A DNA stretch of 64,000 bases from the sequence record MN648445, one strand, 5' to 3'. The notes beneath the pieces are model-generated. The model was not told where the DNA came from, did not search any database, and saw only the letters and a list, made by a program, of their open reading frames with translations. This stretch comes from Escherichia phage FP43. Numbering within the stretch: position 1 is the first letter of the stretch; each line of letters opens with the position of its first letter. A program made the translations under genes and the position numbers. Shown one piece after another: positions 2,631-35,375 of this stretch.

Positions 2631-5600
2631 TTATGCTAAACGAACGATATAGTTAAAAGCAACGTTTTTAACAGTGTTTTCTGTATTTCCTGTGGCATTT
2701 ACAGTTATTGTATGGCCATGGGAACCAATTGCAACAGTATGAGAATGAGCACCAATACCCACCGAATGGGTATGAGCACCAATACCTACCGTATGAGCAT
2801 GGTTACCCGTAGAGCTAGTAGTTCCTGACCAACTATGGGTGTGGGCACCGTCATTTGATGTTTTACCGACCTTAGTTGCTAAAGTCGAACCAGTGATACC
2901 TGAGTTAATTTTAGCATATGAGTTTGCACCTATCGTAGTAACCCCGTCTCTAAACAAATCGTCTGCCCATGCAGCAGTGACCTGTGGACCTGAACGCGCG
3001 TGTTGGTGAGCTCCTGCGGAACTAGTATTACCACTCACTGTATGGTTATGGTTACCAGTGGTATTACTGGTCTTAGTACCATAATCAAAGCTTGAAGTCG
3101 TTTTGCTACCGTAATCAAAACTAGAAGTGGTCTTAGTACCCAAATCTGTGTTTGATGCACTTGCACTATGGCTATGTGACTTAACACCGTCTGCTTCTGT
3201 ACTTAATACAGCGCGCCCAGATGGTTTACCCTTGATAGTTTGACCACGCATATCAGGCAGAGCGCCAGAAGGATACACCGCAGCTAACTTAGGATACAAG
3301 CCAGTATCAAATGTTTGGCCTTCCATTATGGCATAACCTTCAGGAGGTGTATCGGTAGGCCAAGGAATCGGAGCACCAATTGGGTAACTCGAGACAATAT
3401 CCGTTTTAAGGTTATTTATTGTGGTATTCAAGTTAGCAAAGTTGCCAGAACCACCAGTAATATTACCATCAGTACCGAATTGAGCATTACCAACTTTTAA
3501 TGGTTTAGTAATATCGACAGAATCAGAGTTTAATGCAATACCATGTGAATATGTGTAGCTGTGCATACGAACGACGTTGCCGCCATCTCCAATACCTAAA
3601 TACCATTTCGGAACATCTGCTTTACGTCCTTGAATGAAGTTAGAAGACTCTTGTGTTGGAGCATTTATTCTAATAGCATCTGATGCCATATTTACTGTTA
3701 TGCGTTGACCAGCCGTAGTTCCAGCCGCTTCTACTTTAAATCTACCGCCGCCGATATCTACATCATGATCCATGGAAACTTTACCAGTACTTAATGTAAT
3801 ATAGAACGGACGTAAATTAGAAATACCACCTGATTCACCAACATTCTGTGGAGTTGGAATAATATAAAGCTTATCTTCAGAACGACGGAAAATAGCCCCG
3901 TATTCAGCATCGTAAATACGGAAAGCATCAGCAGTCCCGCCAATTTTAACCTGTCCAGTAATTGAGGCACCACCTTGAACAAACAATCCATTATTCATTG
4001 TAACGTTGCCAACTAGAGTGCTTAATCCGTTAACTCTAAGACTTCCGTCGGTTATTAAGCTTCCTCTAGCATTAACCTGTCCATTGAACTGAGTTACAAC
4101 AGGGCCTGTAGTTTCAGAACCGGTCGGAGCTACGCGTTGAGAATAGAAATAATAACCTTGGCCATCAGAAACCTCAAATACGGTTTCTCGAGCTTTATCA
4201 CCAGTAGCATTAAATGAGTTACCCCATGCTTTCACGGTCACATAACTTTTGTTCTGACCTGCACGAGTACCGCCTTCCCAAAGGATTTGTTTGGTGCCAT
4301 CAATACCTGAAGCCGCTTTAAAAACTAGAGAAGCATTAGTTCCATCACCATTAAAATATAATCCATTATTAAGTTTTAACGTTTGAACAGAAGCGATGGT
4401 ACCATCAGCACGCAAATTTAACGAATTTGAACCAGTTTTAATATCTAAAATGCCAGGCTCAACAAGAAGCCCATCACCCATACTAACGGACATACGACCA
4501 GTGCCACGGAAATAGTGATACATCTTGGCATTGCTGCTATAACCAATATGAGTCTGACCGTCACCGTTATTATTACCATCAACATCGGTACGCGCAGTAA
4601 ACATTGCTTGGTTGTTATTTGGGTAATCCCAAGTAGAACCAGAATCTCGACTATAACCAACCATCAATTTTTTAGTACTGTTAATACCGTTATTAAGAAT
4701 AGTGCCGGCAGAAATACCATTCGAAACTAAATCGATAACCCCGTCACGAACCCATTTAATACCAGTATCATTGTCACCAATTGCAATACCTTTACCAAAC
4801 GAAACCAATGGATAACGTCCTTGGTCACCAACATCAGCAAGACCTATACCTATCGAATTAGCAACAGACATACGCCCATCTGTGGTATAAGACCATTGAT
4901 AAACTTCAGCATTACGTCCCGTCCAATACGAAATATTCTGTGGTTTACCTGAACGAGCATCAGCAACTTCATGGAAAATAGCAGAAGAAACATGTCCGCG
5001 GAATTTACGAAGGTAGTTTATACCATTAGTATCCAAATCTGTTTCGGTTGGAGTATAGTGCCAAGTCGGTAATGAAACTAAATCATATGCAGTATCAATA
5101 TTAGTGTCCCAAGATTTAGTGCTCACATTGATATTTTTGGTAATAACTTTAGGACCAATTAAAGAACCAGCTTTAGTTTCAATATTACTTTGAGTAACTA
5201 AATATCCATTAGATACTAATAAACTTCCGGAATCAACTTGAAAATTACCGTTTCGATTAAAAGTCCAGTATTTTGAAGTCCCGGTTTCATCAATATAATG
5301 GAATTTAAAACTACCTTCGTTTACTAATGTACCAGCAGAAAAAGTTCCATCTTTATAGCGTTGTTTAATCAGTGGATGGTATTCTGAAACAGAAGTAGTT
5401 GAACTTAAATCTGTAAAGATAGGGGCTTTATTCGAATGTTGGTTAGCCCAAGCGCCATTTCCAGTGGTTTTAGGTAAAAATTCAATGTATTTTCCTGCAT
5501 AAACAAACTGATTTCCATTGAGATTATACGTGCCGTTTTGTAAATAATCGCCAGTTTGAGTTACATTACCGTTAATATCCCCACCCTTAGCAAAGCCTAG

Positions 5601-5755: not shown

Positions 5756-6421
5756 TTAATAATAGCCGAAATCTTGAACAGAATCTTTAATTACAATCTG
5801 GTCGAAACGAGGAACATGATTAGCCTCAGACGCCGGATTCTGTGAGAAAAAGTTTGGTGCTGTTAAAGTACCAGTCATGGTATCGCCTTTACGCAATACA
5901 CGGGAATTTGCGTTATCCGTAACAATATTTATTCGTCCATCAACATAATCTTTTCTTGTGAGATCATTTGCTGCAACCGGCGCAGTAGCGTTAGAACGGA
6001 CAGGACCAGTTGCATAAATACCACCTTTAGTGCTGATATCACCAGTACGAGTGTTAACAACAACAGTTCTACCTGCAGATCCTTGTGATGATTTAAAACC
6101 AATGCCATACCATGAAACAATATCAATATTTGCTGTATCAAAAGTAGCAGCATCGCCATTGCCAGGATAAATACCACTTTGATTTGTGTTATTTACGGCA
6201 TAAGGTACTTGCACACCATTATTAAATGTTACTCGAGCGGCATACGTACCACCATTAGCTTTAGAAACGAAATCGTTATCAGCCGCTTGTGGTTTATTAT
6301 ATTCTGAATAGAGTTTAAACGTTTTATACAGGACGTCATCACCTGCTGGCATTAAAGGGAAATTACCTTGATGCCATATAACAGCACCGCCAGTTGTACT
6401 ACCAGCTTTTAAATCGGCCAT
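5756..6421 (-). CDS. 36: gp36 long tail fiber distal connector
   Basis: 221 aa; length and position as T4 gp36. Confidence 0.85.
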
Positions 6422-6445
6422 AGTTGTCTCCTTATATGTATACCA

Positions 6446-6453
6446 TATTTATA
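6446..6453 (-). promoter_or_regulatory. late promoter TATAAATA for gene 36
   Basis: Exact TATAAATA on the minus strand, after the terminator hairpin and before the gene 36 RBS. Confidence 0.7.
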
Positions 6454-6461
6454 CAAAAATA

Positions 6462-6483: not shown

Positions 6484-7611
6484 TTATTCTGATGCTTCTT
6501 TAAATTCTTGTCCAAATACCTTACCAGTATCAGTTGAAGATTGAGTAGGTAGTGTCATTATGTCTGGGGCACTTAAAGATTCTGAAACATAATTTACACG
6601 AATACCATTTATACCAAACTCGGCCGGTTTTGAAACGCTTCCATTATATGATACTTCAGTGAATATAACGTTTCTTAATCCACCTTGCCCAACTGGAGCT
6701 GTACGATAACAATAAATCGTGAACCCGTCAGCACCAGCAGGAATTTCTATGTAGTCTTCATATATCTTCCATTCACCTGCACCCCCATCAAAGTTTATAT
6801 CCTTAAATGAAATAGGTGAAGTAGAAGGAGATTTAAAGAAACGAATAGAAAGTCGTGTCGTCCCTTGTGCTAACAAATCAGCATCGGCCATTAGTTGGAA
6901 TTTCATATAAAGGAAATCTCCAGGCTTCAATTTATACCCGGCGAGAGGTGTAATAACGGATGTTGTAGGCATCCTTTTAATTTCATTATTAGTACCTCCA
7001 ACAGCAGATAAAAATGTGTCTGTCGATTCGTACGTACGTCTAGGGAAGCCGGTAGCACCAATATCATCGATCGTGTCGTACACAACATCAAGTGGTGTAC
7101 TATAGTCGGTTGAAGTTTTCTTATTACTATACTTAATATGTTCTAGCGCTATAGCATTCTTACCAGAAATATAAAATGCAGAATAAGAAATGTCCACTAT
7201 ATTTAAAACTTGTTGAGCTAATGGAATAGCAGAACTCCCAGCTTTAGTAAACCATGCAAGAACTTCAGGTGGAAAGTTTGTTTTAGCGTTAGTAACAAGA
7301 GCAAATATAAAATTTGAAGCATACGCGTCCATGAAAGTAACAAATGCACTTGACGTGGCGTCGTTTTCAGTAGAGAAATTATATGTCTTAGATTCAACTA
7401 CTGCACCTGTTGTAGGATTTATTACACGAACGTTTAATCCAACGGAAAAAACCTGGGACCCAAGTGGATTATCTTGGAACTTAATATAAGCAGGAGATGT
7501 TGATAGCGGACAAGAGCCCGCTATGCTTAATTTAAATCGTACTGAATTGCTTTCCGATAAAAATGGCGTTTGGACGTATCCTTGTCCAAACTTAGCCATA
7601 AATTTTTCCAT
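6484..7611 (-). CDS. 35: gp35 long tail fiber hinge protein
   Basis: 375 aa; position between 34 and 36. Confidence 0.85.
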   Translation of the reverse strand: MEKFMAKFGQGYVQTPFLSESNSVRFKLSIAGSCPLSTSPAYIKFQDNPLGSQVFSVGLNVRVINPTTGAVVESKTYNFSTENDATSSAFVTFMDAYASNFIFALVTNAKTNFPPEVLAWFTKAGSSAIPLAQQVLNIVDISYSAFYISGKNAIALEHIKYSNKKTSTDYSTPLDVVYDTIDDIGATGFPRRTYESTDTFLSAVGGTNNEIKRMPTTSVITPLAGYKLKPGDFLYMKFQLMADADLLAQGTTRLSIRFFKSPSTSPISFKDINFDGGAGEWKIYEDYIEIPAGADGFTIYCYRTAPVGQGGLRNVIFTEVSYNGSVSKPAEFGINGIRVNYVSESLSAPDIMTLPTQSSTDTGKVFGQEFKEASE

Positions 7612-7619
7612 AATACCTC

Positions 7620-10600
7620 TTATTCAATCCACTCAAATTTAACAGATTTATTCACAGGGTCTGGAATAACGCGGACATTACCAATCCTTAAGAAATCCCT
7701 TATTGTCAAGTTTCCGATTGTTGCATTATCAGAAGGTAAAGCACCAATATCAGAAGGTTGAGGAGGGTTTCCACCATCAAATACCTGAACAAAACTTGAC
7801 CAAGAATTTTTAGTTTTCTGCCATGTACGTGTCCAACGGGTTGTACGTGCCTCTGGAGTTGTTGGATAAGTAATCCAATCTTGGTAAAGCGAATCAAGTG
7901 TATTACCAAACTGAGTCAATGTACCAGGAGATTTAACTTCTTCGCCACGTTCTAAGTATGGAAGCCCAGTCACTTCATTAGTTTTTTCAACCATTTTAAA
8001 ATAACCCGGGAACTGGTTATAAGTGGCTGAATCATTAATATCGATTGACCAGAATCCTACGGTATCAGATGTTGGCGCGCGGGTATATAAATCAGATGCT
8101 TTAGTACCCTGAGAACGAATTCTCGAGTTAACAGTTAAACCACCTGAATTTATAGTAGCACCTTTGGCAATGATTAAGCCTTCACCAATCGTTACTTGGC
8201 CAGATGCATTATTAATAGCCAAAGGACGTAATCCATTAAATCCACCGGTCTGATCACCGGATGCAGTAAGCATAAAATAGGTATTAGCAGCATCATTACG
8301 AATAAAGAATCCGTAATTACCACTAATTGCTCTGAATGCGTTTGCACTATAGGTTATAAATTCACCCTGTGCTGTCACCGAACGTCCAAATGTTGCCGCA
8401 CCATTAGCATTCAATGTTCCGGATGCATTAACATTAATCGGCCGAACTGTACCGTTGATGCTGAAAGTAATATTACCAAGGTTATCCCGTTGTGAATAAA
8501 AGTGGTTAGATGTTTCATCACCAACTTCAAATATCGTAGCACGAGATGTATCAGAACCGCCGGCGAATTGGTTACCCCATACACGGATATTCATCGCCTG
8601 AGCAGGGTTGTTTCCAGTTTGTGGACCTTTTTCAAATATTAAGCGAGTTGAAGCACCTGTATTAGAAATAGTTAATGTACTATTAGCAGATACCGAACCA
8701 CCAAACGTAGCAGTACTAGATGATACAAGAGGGGCACTCAGATTCGTTTGTTGGGTTAAGGTTAGTGAACCATTAACCGTCTGCGCAATGTCCCTACGAA
8801 TGAACTGAGATGAATCTAGGCCATCTAATAAATTTGCATCAGCAGCTTTAGCTTTCAATGGCAAATAGTTAGCAAGTACACGGTTTAATTCATATGGAGA
8901 TATAGCATAGCTATTTTTTTCATACGATTCTAAAGGTTGTGTTGAACCAACTGTATCATTACCAACAAATGTAATAGAACCAGATGAAGTTTTAACGAAT
9001 CCGCGAATTGCTGTAGTAGCAGCCCATGTTGGTTCATTCTGGACAATCCATTTTAAATTCTTAGGAGATACAGCAGTATTAGCAGAAGTTCCTGTTACAG
9101 TTTCAGCCTGAGTAGCAACCTTAATTACGCCTTCAGACGTTTCAGTGGACTTAGTCCCTAAAAGCTTTTTAGGAGTAATAAGAACATCATCTAAAGTTCC
9201 TGCATTAGATTCTGCCTGGGTCGCTACGCGAAGTGTACCACGTTGTGTTTCATTTGCTTTATAAATATCAAGAGTATAATGGTTCCACAAGGTTCCTTCT
9301 TCAATAAGTCCGGAATCAGAATTAACACTGGTACGGTCAGAAGAATCAAAATGAGTTTTAATTTTCAGTGGAGTCGAGATACGAGTATCATCAGTTCCAG
9401 TATCAAATTCAACTTGCGTAGCAATTTCGGCTATGCCGGATAATCCTTCCGTAGCTTTCCTATCATTTAACGTCTTAGGCGTTACTGCACGTGTATAATC
9501 AGTCCCAGCATTAGTTTCTGCTTGCGTAGCAATTTCAATTAAACCAATACGTCCATCAGTAGAAGTTTTCTTATGTAGTGTTTCAGGAGTTACTACAGCG
9601 TGAGAATAACCTGCTTGTGATTGACCAGCAATTACTTCACTATCAACAGCTAAAATTACTGCACCTTGTTGAGCATAAGTTGCTTTATATTGGTCAAGGG
9701 CTTTAGGAGAAATAGTTAAATTATTTACGGTTTTATTATAAACGTTAGTGCCTGCAGCCCCACGAGTTTCAGCAGGAGTAGCAGAAGTAGTTGATACATA
9801 TTTAACTATACCAGACAGTGTTTCAGAACCCTGACGTGCCTGTAATTTCTTAGGTGTAATAATCGTTGTGTCATCAAGACCAGCATCGGTTTCAACCTGA
9901 GTAGCAATTTCAGCAAGACCACGACGAGTTTCAGTTGCTGTACGCTCATTTAATTTTTTAGGCGTAACAATAGTATCGTCCACAAATGCTGCTGTGGAAT
10001 TCTGGTTAACTTGTGCTGTTGTAGCAATTTTAGCGATACCACGTCGAGCTTCAGTTGCTGTACGATTTGCCAACGTTTCAGGAGTAATAGCCACTTCTTT
10101 AGCTGGAGTATTCTCTAAATCAACATTTGCTTGCGCTTGAGTAGCAAGAGCAATAACACCTAAACGAGCTCGTGTAGCATCAGTTCCAGCATCGACACGT
10201 TCTACGGTTGGGACGTTTTGTTGAACAACCCAATAACGTGTACCAGCAACGGTGTCTTCGATATACGCTAATTCTAATACAGGAACATATGAAGTAGTGC
10301 CATTGAATTCTAGTTCAGTAACAGAGACCCATTGAGCATCAGGTGGATATTCAGAACGTTTAGGGAACTGAAGCAATGCAACAGTGGAAGCAATTGTATC
10401 ACCTTCGGCAGCTTTAATTTTTACTGTTTGGCCTTTACGCATGTAGTTCATTGAAATTTTAACAGTGTCACCACTCAAAATTCCGGTAGGCAGCGTAAGA
10501 TTAATAGTTCCGGTTGTAGCGTTATTTGTGCCAAAGATAAGAACTTCTTCATTTGGACGAATATTTGAATCCGCACGGATAATACGAAGACGCGATTTCT

Positions 10601-31887: not shown

Positions 31888-31917
31888 TTTACATCCAAGG
31901 ACGGATTAGAGTATAAT
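31887..31917 (+). promoter_or_regulatory. early promoter
   Basis: GTTTAC 31887-31892, TATAAT 31912-31917 (19-nt spacer). Confidence 0.5.
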
Positions 31918-31943: not shown

Positions 31944-32141
31944 ATGAAATTTTTAATAGCACAAACAGTCCAATTAAAAGGTGTTGGAATTCCTGGGGTG
32001 ATTTTTAAAGTTCTCCCTGAATTTAAAACCAGCGCTGGAATTATCAATGAAGCGTATGCTGTTCAATGGGTTGATTGGACTTCTGACATACGTATGGGTA
32101 AAGAGTTATCTCCTATTAAAGGGTTGAAACATGTTGAATAA
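31944..32141 (+). CDS. hypothetical protein (65 aa)
   Basis: ATG 31944; the track start 31932 is a GTG. Confidence 0.4.
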   Translation: MKFLIAQTVQLKGVGIPGVIFKVLPEFKTSAGIINEAYAVQWVDWTSDIRMGKELSPIKGLKHVE

Positions 32142-32343
32142 ATTAATCCAGAAATTGTTAGGTACAGAAATGGTTGAAGTTACGTATCGTGTGACTGATG
32201 TAAGCCCATGGACCCGAAAAGTTGAACCATATACTAAAACAATTAAAATGCTGAAATATGACAGTGGATTATCTATCAAAGACCGTCTACCGGCTTATGG
32301 TCATTGGGCTGATGTTGAAATTATAAGTGTTAAAGATGTCTGA
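32131..32343 (+). CDS. hypothetical protein (70 aa)
   Basis: ATG overlapping the upstream stop (ATGTTGAATAA). Confidence 0.4.
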   Translation: MLNKLIQKLLGTEMVEVTYRVTDVSPWTRKVEPYTKTIKMLKYDSGLSIKDRLPAYGHWADVEIISVKDV

Positions 32344-32794
32344 GTTAGAGATAAGAAGCAATTTCAAGTGGCCGTCATGTGCATTAAGTAACTTTGCTCA
32401 ATGGCCTTTTGTTATGGATGGTATTCAATTCGGAGGTCTTGAAGGATTTCTCCAAGGATGTAAGGTGAAAAATGTTGAACAACAAAGACGTATATTTGGG
32501 TTGTCTGGATTGGCCGCACAGCAAGCTGGAAGGTCTTATGCAAGAGCTCAGGACCGTGGGACTCTCTTCTGGTTAGGAGTTCCATTTTCAAGATACTCCG
32601 AAGCGTGGAAAGAATTATACACAAATGCATATTTTGAAGCCGCGATCCAAAACAAGGGGTTTCGTGATGCCTTACAAGCCTCTAAAGGAAAAATTTTGAA
32701 GCACAGCATGGCCAGCCACCTAACAAAAGATGATACAATACTAACTGAAGATGAATTTATTGACGTGTTAAACCTATTAAGAGACTCTTTATGA
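32336..32794 (+). CDS. NADAR-like (YbiA/DUF1768-like) protein
   Basis: ATG 32336; ALSNFAQWPF..DGIQF...EGFLQGCKV resembles the NADAR signature of E. coli YbiA as recalled. Confidence 0.55.
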   Translation: MSELEIRSNFKWPSCALSNFAQWPFVMDGIQFGGLEGFLQGCKVKNVEQQRRIFGLSGLAAQQAGRSYARAQDRGTLFWLGVPFSRYSEAWKELYTNAYFEAAIQNKGFRDALQASKGKILKHSMASHLTKDDTILTEDEFIDVLNLLRDSL

Positions 32795-33606
32795 AGCCTA
32801 CTATTTTGACTGATATTGATGGTGTATGTTTAAGTTGGCAATCTGGACTTCCTTATTTTGCCCAAAAATATAATCTTCCATTAGAACATATTTTAAAAAT
32901 GATTCAGGACGAAAAATTTATTTCTCCTGGTAAACTGTTCAATACCGATGATAACCTCGGTAAACAATTAATAGAAAAATATAATCGCTCTGATTTTATT
33001 CGTTACTTAGCGCCTTATTCGGATGCTCTTCGAGTTATCAATAAACTAAAAGAAGACTATAATTTTGTAGCCGTGACGGCGCTAGGTGATTCAATTGATG
33101 CTCGATTGAATAGACAATTTAATTTGAATGCTTTGTTCCCAGGCGCTTTTTCTGAAGTAATGATGTGTGGTCATGATTCGTCAAAGGAACAATTATTCGA
33201 ACTAGCTAAAACAAAATATAACGTGATTTGTTACGTTGACGATTTAGCTCATCACTGTGACCATGCGGCAGAAATTCTTAATGTACCGATTTATTGGTTG
33301 GCCCGTGGTGAACGTGATGATATTCCTCGCACTGCACAACGTGTACACACGTGGGATGATATTGAATCTCGTTTGGTTCCACCCGAGCATAATTCAGATT
33401 CAGATCGTGAAGACCTTTTAAAACGATTGGCGGATTTGCTTAAAGAATCAGGTGCAACAAGCCCAGGTGCATGGCCTAATCAAATTGGCGCTCCGTCGAA
33501 TCCGTATACTTGGCGAACTCCAGGACCAACCGATATGCAGCCATGGTGGACGATTCAAAACTTTCCTTTAGATTCGTCCAAATGGACTTGGTCTATAAAT
33601 TGTTAA
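32791..33606 (+). CDS. HAD-superfamily phosphatase / nucleotidase-like protein
   Basis: 271 aa; N-terminal motif ILTDIDGVCL (DxDG nucleophile) and later YVDDL. Confidence 0.55.
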   Translation: MKPTILTDIDGVCLSWQSGLPYFAQKYNLPLEHILKMIQDEKFISPGKLFNTDDNLGKQLIEKYNRSDFIRYLAPYSDALRVINKLKEDYNFVAVTALGDSIDARLNRQFNLNALFPGAFSEVMMCGHDSSKEQLFELAKTKYNVICYVDDLAHHCDHAAEILNVPIYWLARGERDDIPRTAQRVHTWDDIESRLVPPEHNSDSDREDLLKRLADLLKESGATSPGAWPNQIGAPSNPYTWRTPGPTDMQPWWTIQNFPLDSSKWTWSINC

Positions 33607-33615
33607 GGGCTAATT

Positions 33616-33885
33616 ATGTTTGTAGTTCATGATATTACAGATGGCAAAAACACCACACGTGACTACGGTCATGTTAACATGTTCTTTCGAGACTGGCCGG
33701 TGTTTCGTTCAGTAAAAGACGCAGAAATATTTAAAGAGTGTGTTGAACAAGGGTTCATCTACATTTCAGAATATTATGTTGAAGGACTCGGTAAATGGAT
33801 TACCACTTATCAGAAAACGCTGAAATCGCTTCTAGATGAAGTGGCTTATAATAGAACCGTAACCAAAATCGAGGACATCAAATGA
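33616..33885 (+). CDS. hypothetical protein (89 aa)
   Basis: ATG ORF overlapping the ligase start. Confidence 0.45.
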   Translation: MFVVHDITDGKNTTRDYGHVNMFFRDWPVFRSVKDAEIFKECVEQGFIYISEYYVEGLGKWITTYQKTLKSLLDEVAYNRTVTKIEDIK

Positions 33886-35375
33886 TTTTAGATATTTTAA
33901 ACCAAATAGCTGCGATCGGTTCTACTAAAACAAAACAAGAAATCCTTAAGAAAAATAAGGACAACAAATTACTTGAACGTGTGTATCGTTTAACATATGC
34001 ACGTGGTATCCAGTATTATATTAAGAAATGGCCAGGACCAGGTGAAAGGTCTCAAGCGTATGGTCTTCTTGAATTAGATGACATGTTGGATTTTATTGAG
34101 TTCACATTAGCCACTCGTAAACTCACTGGTAATGCTGCAATTAAAGAGCTCATGGGTTATATCGCTGACGGTAAACCTGATGATGTAGAAGTCCTTCGTC
34201 GTGTAATGATGCGAGACCTTGAAGTAGGTGCTTCAGTGTCTATCGCGAATAAGGTGTGGCCTGGACTTATTCAATTGCAGCCACAGATGTTAGCATCTGC
34301 ATATGATGAGAAATTGATTACTAAAAATATTAAATGGCCTGCATTTGCCCAATTAAAGGCAGATGGTGCTCGTTGTTTCGCTGAAGTTCGCGATGATGGC
34401 GTTCAATTCTTTTCTCGTGCCGGTAACGAATACCATGGTCTTACTCTATTAGCAGATGAACTAATGGAAATGACTAAAGAAGCTCGTGAAAGACACCCTA
34501 ATGGGGTTTTAATCGACGGTGAATTAGTTTATCATTCATTTGATATTAAAAAGGCTGTGAGCTCAGGAAATGACCTGTCGTTCTTATTTGGCGATAATGA
34601 AGAATCCGAAGAAGTACAAGTTGCAGACCGTAGCACTTCAAATGGTTTAGCAAATAAATCTCTTCAAGGGACTATTTCTCCTAAAGAAGCGGAAGGTATG
34701 GTTCTTCAAGCCTGGGACTATGTTCCTTTAGATGAAGTCTACTCTGATGGCAAAATTAAAGGTCAGAAATACGATGTTCGTTTTGCTGCTCTTGAAAATA
34801 TGGCTGAAGGCTTTAAGCGAATTGAGCCAATTGAAAATCAGTTAGTTCGTAATCTTGACGAAGCTAAAGTGGTTTATAAAAAATATGTTGACCAAGGTCT
34901 TGAAGGTATTATCCTTAAAAACCGTGATTCATATTGGGAAAACAAACGCTCTAAGAACCTAATTAAATTTAAAGAAGTTATTGATATCGCTTTAGAAGTT
35001 GTAGGATACTACGAACACTCTAAAGACCCTAACAAATTAGGTGGTGTCGAACTCGTATCACGTTGTCGTCGTATTACAACCGATTGTGGTTCAGGGTTTA
35101 AAGATACAACTCATAAAACAGTTGATGGTGTAAAGGTTCTTATTCCTTTAGATGAGCGTCATGATTTAGACCGTGAACGATTAATGGCTGAAGCTCGTGA
35201 AGGTAAATTGATTGGACGTATTGCTGATTGCGAATGTAATGGTTGGGTTCATTCTAAAGGACGTGAAGGCACTGTAGGTATTTTCCTTCCAATTATTAAA
35301 GGGTTCCGTTTTGATAAAACAGAAGCGGATTCATTTGAAGACGTATTTGGACCGTGGTCCCAGACAGGTTTATAA
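33882..35375 (+). CDS. 30: ATP-dependent DNA ligase
   Basis: 497 aa; KADGAR adenylation motif; strong match to T4 gp30 as recalled. Confidence 0.95.
   Translation: MILDILNQIAAIGSTKTKQEILKKNKDNKLLERVYRLTYARGIQYYIKKWPGPGERSQAYGLLELDDMLDFIEFTLATRKLTGNAAIKELMGYIADGKPDDVEVLRRVMMRDLEVGASVSIANKVWPGLIQLQPQMLASAYDEKLITKNIKWPAFAQLKADGARCFAEVRDDGVQFFSRAGNEYHGLTLLADELMEMTKEARERHPNGVLIDGELVYHSFDIKKAVSSGNDLSFLFGDNEESEEVQVADRSTSNGLANKSLQGTISPKEAEGMVLQAWDYVPLDEVYSDGKIKGQKYDVRFAALENMAEGFKRIEPIENQLVRNLDEAKVVYKKYVDQGLEGIILKNRDSYWENKRSKNLIKFKEVIDIALEVVGYYEHSKDPNKLGGVELVSRCRRITTDCGSGFKDTTHKTVDGVKVLIPLDERHDLDRERLMAEAREGKLIGRIADCECNGWVHSKGREGTVGIFLPIIKGFRFDKTEADSFEDVFGPWSQTGL

Follow-up and report, generated by a model that had tools for sequence, protein, structure and literature searches.

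An intact adfN gene and a neighbouring gene for a predicted, deoxyribonucleotidase-like HAD phosphatase in the 30.x cluster of Escherichia phage FP43

The closest described system is that of phage T4. The T4 gene 30.3 was renamed adfN by Johannesman et al. (Nat Commun 2025, PMC11825919), and its deletion has been shown to prevent T4 and T2 from plating on DarTG1 hosts (PMC11825919). The allele of phage RB69 is frameshifted and inactive and encodes a product without the C-terminal helix; this phage is rescued by ectopic AdfN (PMC11825919). Purified AdfN alone strips ADP-ribose from DarT1-modified DNA in vitro, and the protein is impaired by the substitutions E36A and K43A as well as by an RB69-type C-terminal truncation (PMC11825919). 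Full activity of AdfN is reached only in T-even infection, and the authors infer the participation of a further phage factor (PMC11825919). T4 AdfN displays no antitoxin action in uninfected cells (PMC11825919, PMC11125620). A phage NADAR is also active on guanine-ADPr in vitro, the tested NADARs show specificity for this adduct in DNA, and the last strand carries His in phage NADARs instead of the Glu or Asp of other NADARs (PMC11125620). The reversal of DarT-type guanine ADP-ribosylation, which an earlier note on the FP43 DNA had cited as a reported activity of NADAR proteins, is already known for a phage NADAR from the work of 2024–2025 on the T4 orthologue, a protein 96% identical to the one encoded here. 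For the product of the adjacent gene, gp30.2, no paper was found in the literature searches.

The DNA analysed here, referred to as the window, is a stretch of 64,000 nucleotides of Escherichia phage FP43 (MN648445), a T4-like coliphage. Its segment 31200–35400 is matched by 749 phage records and shares 97–98% identity with the Escherichia phages p000y, 55, CAU_ECP01 and JS09. According to the annotated T4 genome, the genes of this locus follow one another as 30.5, 30.4, 30.3, 30.2, 30.1, 30 (DNA ligase), alt.1 and alt (Table 1), and this order identifies ORF1 as gene 30.3 and ORF2 as gene 30.2. Both open reading frames are present as described in the earlier note, ORF1 at 32336–32794 and ORF2 at 32791–33606, together with the NADAR-like and HAD-like motifs quoted from them and the ATGA that they share. 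The pair had been placed upstream of the DNA ligase gene. The ligase gene does lie downstream, with the small gene 30.1 in between. The ADP-ribosyltransferase Alt, expected about 3 kb downstream, has a homologue that starts 3.3 kb past the start of ORF1 and 2.0 kb past the end of ORF2.

Table 1. Features of the adfN–gp30.2 region of phage FP43 (window coordinates).
Feature	Position	Strand	Remarks
Sigma-70-like promoter match TTTACA-18-TATAAT	31888..31917	+	11/12 consensus positions; just 5′ of the 30.5 homologue
gp30.4 homologue, 70 aa	32131..32343	+	phrog_2042, E 4.5e-34; ~46% identity to T4 30.4
adfN (gene 30.3), 152 aa, intact	32336..32794	+	NADAR superfamily; E36, K43, H123, C-terminal helix 138-151
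gp30.2 catalytic core, residues 1-195	32791..33375	+	predicted HAD phosphatase fold with C1 helical cap; nearest characterised family NT5C
gp30.2 C-terminal tail, residues ~196-271	33376..33606	+	variable; missing in many homologues
gp30.1 homologue, DUF3045, 89 aa	33616..33885	+	PF11243, E 1.1e-26
gp30 ATP-dependent DNA ligase, 497 aa	33882..35375	+	annotated relatives; 64% identity to T4 ligase
Alt-like ADP-ribosyltransferase, 695 aa	35619..37706	+	41% identity to T4 Alt, full length

The genes of this region are tightly packed. The stop codon of 30.4 overlaps the start of adfN, by 8 nt (ATGTCTGA), the stop of ORF1 and the start of ORF2 share the ATGA at 32791–32794, and the stop of 30.1 overlaps the ligase start by 4 nt, again as ATGA. 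In the T4 annotation, overlaps of 1, 4 or 8 nt are found at most junctions of the 30.x region, and the ATGA between 30.3 and 30.2 is likewise present there. Since overlaps of starts and stops are usual throughout the cluster, the ATGA shared by ORF1 and ORF2 says little about function. The promoter match in front of the 30.5 homologue is a possible candidate for an early promoter of the array 30.5-30.4-30.3-30.2-30.1-30; the total of promoter-consensus matches across the region is no higher than the shuffled expectation.

The product of ORF1, read from an ATG to a TGA codon, contains LSNFAQWPFVMDGIQFGGLEGFLQG. It matches the family PF08010 (Bacteriophage protein GP30.3) with 232.1 bits, where the curated cut-off is 36, over profile positions 1–138 of 138. 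The alignment with T4 gp30.3 is free of gaps and shows 146 of the 152 residues to be identical (96%). The six substitutions (window residue first) are K11R, E89P, I120V, M125I, H128G and D139A, none of them at an invariant position, and on the codon level 32 synonymous differences stand beside 6 non-synonymous ones. The residues E36, K43 and H123 are invariant in an alignment of 50 homologues reaching down to 35% identity. E. coli YbiA is matched by a profile built from the family alignment (E 0.0028), and the match spans the catalytic motif E-x-x-F-Q-x-x-K. The AlphaFold model of the protein (pLDDT 93.5) displays the NADAR alpha+beta fold. The reading frame extends to residue 152 without an RB69-type frameshift, and the modelled structure includes the helix 138–151. 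PF08719, the general NADAR profile by which the earlier note had proposed to check the assignment, did not match ORF1 at E values up to 1, and a single-sequence search of the PDB with ORF1 found nothing. One homologue, P0162, bears both Pfam assignments, PF08010 and PF08719. The missing PF08719 match reflects the limited sensitivity of that model and is no argument against NADAR membership. Sequence, fold, catalytic residues and C-terminal helix agree in placing ORF1 within the NADAR superfamily, in its AdfN/gp30.3 clade. The NADAR-type assignment in the earlier note is borne out, as is the presence of the catalytic Glu and Lys on alignment.

Because E36, K43, H123 and the C-terminal helix are all in place, the AdfN protein of the window should be active as a DNA ADP-ribosylglycohydrolase, as judged from orthology with the 96%-identical T4 protein. 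From the same intact residues and helix, the phage is predicted to be resistant to DarTG1, unlike RB69 with its frameshifted allele. A recent transfer of adfN from T4 to Mosigvirus, suggested by the 96% protein identity against 64% for the ligase, was considered and rejected on the basis of the nucleotide identity of only 90% and the 32 synonymous changes. In view of these two values, the high protein identity of AdfN is attributed to purifying selection.

The second gene, ORF2, extends from the ATG at 32791 to the TAA at 33606 and encodes a protein of 271 aa with the N-terminus MKPTILTDIDGV. Its product matches phrog_420 with 266 bits and shares 70% identity overall with T4 gp30.2. Over the first 190 residues the identity amounts to about 85–87% (tblastn and codon count), with 71 synonymous and 24 non-synonymous codon differences. 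Past residue ~190 the identity collapses, and only a short TWRTPG motif is common to both tails. The PF08010 and phrog_420 scores, together with the excess of synonymous over non-synonymous differences from T4, indicate that both ORFs are real genes.

The four HAD motifs of gp30.2 are formed by D8/D10 (motif I, the DxD nucleophile and general acid), T96 (II), K132 (III) and the acidic pair D150/D151 (IV). In an alignment of 45 homologues, all of them from T4-like phages, D8, D10, G11, K132 and R172 are invariant, and T96, D150 and D151 are conserved in at least 90%. The AF2 model consists of a Rossmannoid HAD core with a pLDDT above 90 and a five-helix C1 cap inserted between motifs I and II. 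The tail is modelled as one amphipathic helix followed by a disordered Trp/Pro-rich stretch, with pLDDT values below 50 from residue ~230 onwards. Profile scores of the single sequence are low: HAD_2 gives 15.5 bits (E 0.02) with a cut-off of 23.8, and TIGR01428 gives 12.7 bits with a cut-off of 125.4. The NCBIfam and PADLOC scans of the ORFs returned nothing useful. The sub-threshold HAD scores are a matter of divergence, and the HAD fold is present. With the four catalytic motifs and a capped core fold, ORF2 belongs to the HAD superfamily. The HAD assignment of the earlier note, made from the DxD nucleophile motif, holds, and D8 and D10 are found on alignment as the note had required. Of the profile check that it had suggested, the Pfam matches to NADAR (PF08719) and to HAD failed to appear at threshold, but the family profiles, folds and residue conservation confirm both assignments.

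The likeness of ORF2 to the NT5C family is transitive. Pfam NT5C (PF06941; 5′ nucleotidase, deoxy, cytosolic type C) did not match ORF2 of the window directly, and the best PDB match of the single sequence is a mitochondrial deoxyribonucleotidase with an E value of 0.8. More remote relatives of gp30.2 were taken from environmental viral contigs. These viral HADs are about 200 aa long and share 25–34% identity with ORF2, and alignment of the gp30.2 profile with their profile by hhalign gives a probability of 99.8% (E 1.3e-29). Pfam NT5C matched 18 of the 25 alignment members scanned (24 remote viral HADs and the window core), and its cut-off of 24.8 bits was exceeded by five of the ten members examined. 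The profile of the remote viral HADs also matches the human deoxyribonucleotidase mdN (1mh9) with an E value of 0.005. The invariant W16 of gp30.2 aligns to the mdN Phe located eight residues past the nucleophile, which in the mdN structures stacks on the nucleotide base. The genes neighbouring the remote family members encode PhoH and a clamp-loader subunit, as in the replication region of T4-like phages; this neighbourhood is uninformative on the substrate. The best-supported reading of gp30.2 is that of a putative small-molecule nucleoside-monophosphate phosphatase.

We propose, with a probability of about 0.8, that the locus contains two independent early genes of the packed 30.x cluster, encoding AdfN and the NT5C-like HAD protein gp30.2, and that the two do not form a dedicated pathway. 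The host toxin DarT1 would ADP-ribosylate guanine in the phage DNA and thereby block its replication. AdfN, a stand-alone N-glycosidase of the NADAR fold with the predicted catalytic residues E36, K43 and the phage-clade H123, would hydrolyse the bond between base and ribose, so that ADP-ribose is freed and the DNA restored. The restored DNA would allow the phage to escape DarTG1, by the mechanism demonstrated for the T4 orthologue. The gp30.2 protein is predicted to be a Mg-dependent HAD phosphatase of the small-molecule type with a C1 cap, and a nucleoside monophosphate is its most likely substrate, which would give it a place in the nucleotide-pool economy of the phage. It would be dispensable for the counter-defence exerted by AdfN, and the ATGA overlap would reflect the general gene packing of the T4 early regions.

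Linkage of gp30.2 to the DNA ligase is the basis of an alternative that we regard as unlikely. In this case, gp30.2 would be a partner of the ligase, either as a 3′-phosphatase acting on DNA ends, as T4 polynucleotide kinase does with its HAD domain, or as an enzyme removing a by-product of ligation such as AMP. The T4-like loci (n = 27) were collected with the gp30.2 profile, and 6 kb was taken as the neighbourhood. The ligase gene lies 0–2 kb downstream of gp30.2 in all 27, and in some of them the two genes abut, as in the locus L040 (HAD 7143–7736, ligase 7738–9249). The gene order of T4-like phages is strongly inherited, however, so that this linkage may be merely ancestral, and in marine T4-like contigs no ligase was detectable near the remote homologues. 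The structural model also speaks against a DNA-end substrate, as its five-helix C1 cap covers the active site. A C1 cap is typical of small-molecule HAD phosphatases, whereas HAD enzymes with DNA ends or proteins as substrates are usually capless. Furthermore, gene 30.2 of T4 is non-essential on K-12, with 72 of 72 TA sites hit, while the ligase gene is essential (10.1101/2025.11.20.689424).

A joint function of the two genes, suggested in the earlier note as a counter-defence or nucleotide-repair module, is very improbable. Under this explanation gp30.2 would process the released ADP-ribose or the repaired DNA, or it would be the T-even factor that AdfN needs; the observation that AdfN functions fully only in T-even infection is in its favour, as is the ATGA overlap found in the window and in T4. 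The genetic evidence from T4 argues against it. In the HIDEN-SEQ preprint, a saturated T4 transposon library was screened on a DarTG1 host (10.1101/2025.11.20.689424). In the table for this host, which was recognised by its position (where Data S6 is expected) and by the complete loss of 30.3 and not by its header, insertions in 30.3 are lost (log2FC -7.25, adjusted p 0), and insertions in 30.2 are neutral (log2FC -0.12, p 0.61, 71 TA sites) (10.1101/2025.11.20.689424). The T4 transposon data show no requirement of a second gene, 30.2, for the DarTG1 phenotype. Insertions in 30.4 are mildly depleted in the same screen (log2FC -1.79, adjusted p 0.014) (10.1101/2025.11.20.689424). The product of 30.4 was considered as a partner of AdfN and rejected. 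This gene is located directly 5′ of adfN and overlaps its start, so that the depletion is most simply read as a polar effect. Homologues of gp30.4 were found only in close T-even relatives.

The gene neighbourhoods point in the same direction as the transposon data. The genes adjoin in genomes of the Tequatrovirus and Mosigvirus type and in some further T4-like ones, with a NADAR gene within 6 kb of gp30.2 at 11 of the 27 loci, and on an unrelated contig of 166 kb a distant HAD gene precedes a NADAR gene by 0.7 kb. At the remaining 16 loci, however, no NADAR gene is present within 6 kb. Among the best 80 NADAR loci, a gp30.2-like gene lies within this distance at 22 and none at 58, and at least six complete genomes hold the two genes 54–69 kb apart. 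The adjacency of adfN and gp30.2 is not conserved beyond shared ancestry and has been lost in most T4-like lineages. Overlaps similar to the ATGA are commonplace, being found at 30.4/30.3, at 30.1/30 and between many other T4 neighbours, and purified AdfN de-ADP-ribosylates DNA in vitro by itself.

There is a comparably slim chance that gp30.2 is tied to AdfN in a way missed by the single-gene screen, or that it represents an undescribed (d)NMP phosphatase with a docking tail. In the former case, the T-even factor needed by AdfN might exist redundantly, with gp30.2 as one version of it, or gp30.2 might dispose of products derived from ADP-ribose. A redundant role would be invisible to a single-gene screen, and nothing points specifically to gp30.2. 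In the latter, more modest case, the enzyme could shape the nucleotide pool of T4-like phages, and its disordered aromatic tail could dock on another phage protein. It is hardly credible that the phage NADAR mainly degrades soluble ADP-ribose signals or reverses the modifications made by Alt, ModA and ModB instead of repairing DNA: the Alt gene does lie 2 kb downstream in the window, but this role is largely refuted as an account of the DarTG1 phenotype by the T4 experiments, in which AdfN de-ADP-ribosylates DNA and the phenotype is specific to DarTG1, by the specificity of the tested NADARs for guanine-ADPr in DNA, and by the neutrality of alt insertions on DarTG1 (log2FC -0.01, not significant; 10.1101/2025.11.20.689424), which also speaks against the functional link to Alt hinted at in the earlier note.

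With two independent genes as the preferred reading, the FP43 window adds another intact adfN allele to those described. For gp30.2, the link to NT5C provides a concrete hypothesis that is cheap to address biochemically, although the enzyme kind would be an ordinary one.

Among the known systems, T4 AdfN (gp30.3, PF08010 Phage_30_3) is the closest to the ORF1 product. The two proteins are alike in their length of 152 aa, their sequence, the place of their genes between 30.4 and 30.2, the NADAR fold, the residues E36, K43 and H123 and the C-terminal helix, and they differ by the six substitutions only. The RB69 allele is frameshifted, whereas adfN of the window is not. The NADAR antitoxins associated with DarG1/DarT1 (Geobacter lovleyi, 8bat) and E. 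coli YbiA (2b3w) are far more distant, with 14–19% identity. In comparison with these proteins, AdfN of the window lacks the N-terminal extension and has a His in place of the Asp or Glu of the last strand. It is also an orphan without a linked toxin. The orthologue of the ORF2 product is the hypothetical protein gp30.2 of T4 (phrog_420), which counts among the roughly 100 T4 gene products with no role assigned and with which it shares its neighbours and the ATGA overlap with 30.3. T4 gp30.2 and several homologues carry a GIEYL...P motif near the C-terminus, which the window allele does not have. From the 5′(3′)-deoxyribonucleotidases of the NT5C family (PF06941; human mdN 1mh9 and cdN 6g2n), gp30.2 differs by its below-threshold score and by an extra disordered C-terminal tail of about 75 residues. 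It is like them in the HAD core, the C1 helical cap, the DxDGV sequence, the aromatic residue eight positions past the nucleophile (W16 in gp30.2, Phe in mdN), the motifs II to IV and the domain size of about 190 aa.

The AdfN protein, a NADAR-superfamily enzyme encoded by gene 30.3 at 32336–32794 of the window, is 96% identical to its T4 orthologue, whereas the products of the neighbouring genes, DNA ligase, gp30.1 and gp30.4, share only 64%, 58% and 46% identity with their T4 counterparts, respectively. The ligase gene occupies 33882–35375. At the nucleotide level, adfN is 90% identical to the T4 gene, and the codon differences comprise 32 synonymous and 6 non-synonymous changes. The predominance of synonymous changes in the compared sequences indicates that AdfN is under unusually strong purifying selection, and it disfavours a recent transfer of the gene as the source of the high protein identity. 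The T4 annotation additionally contains 30.3′, an internal out-of-frame ORF of 30.3 encoding 75 aa. In the window, the corresponding frame stays open for 34 codons before a stop codon breaks it, which speaks against conservation of 30.3′ as a gene.

In public data, close homologues of adfN are in many cases called as truncated proteins of 83–126 aa or as fusions that include Pfam domains (PF06919 and PF11097, for example) from adjacent T4 genes. These calls suggest that frameshifts or rearrangements are frequent at the adfN locus, as in the RB69 frameshift, and a part of them may be gene-calling artefacts.

In the T4 transposon screen, insertions in 30.4 were significantly depleted on DarTG1 (log2FC -1.79, adjusted p 0.014), and 30.5 displayed a downward trend (-3.0) which was not significant (10.1101/2025.11.20.689424). 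Since 30.4, whose homologue in the window lies at 32131–32343, overlaps the start of adfN by 8 nt, the simplest explanation of its depletion is polarity on adfN. Gene 30.4 may also itself contribute on DarTG1; homologues of its product are restricted to close T-even relatives.

The HAD-family protein gp30.2 ends in a disordered tail rich in Trp and Pro, with the recurrent short motif W-[RK]-x-P. The tail is hypervariable among phages and is absent in many homologues, which are forms of about 200 aa. Several homologues, including that of T4, end with a GIEYL...P motif, which the window allele lacks. The tail may be a docking peptide.

Positions of the features discussed
Feature	Coordinates	Strand	Location
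30.3′ counterpart region	32472–32699	+	window, other reading frame inside adfN
gp30.2 tail	33376–33606		window, residues ~196–271
L047 gp30.2-like HAD	4736–5308		IMGVR_UViG_2786546475_000015, 166 kb
L047 NADAR gene	5989–6456		IMGVR_UViG_2786546475_000015, 166 kb

NT5C-like HAD proteins of about 200 aa, with the pattern ILTDIDGVxLDWE...NESA...ITSLS...EDK, are widespread in environmental T4-like contigs (loci L111–L162). A PhoH gene lies nearby in 16 of the 52 loci and a clamp-loader subunit gene in 11; no ligase or NADAR gene was found near the HAD genes of these loci. On the distant T4-like contig L047, a NADAR gene is located 0.7 kb downstream of a gp30.2-like HAD gene, whose product (sequence MSKFLLTDIDGCVLNW...) is 24% identical to gp30.2. 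The two genes may have kept this proximity from an ancestral gene order, or they may have come together independently. The gene order, with the HAD gene upstream of the NADAR gene in this single instance, is the reverse of that in T4.
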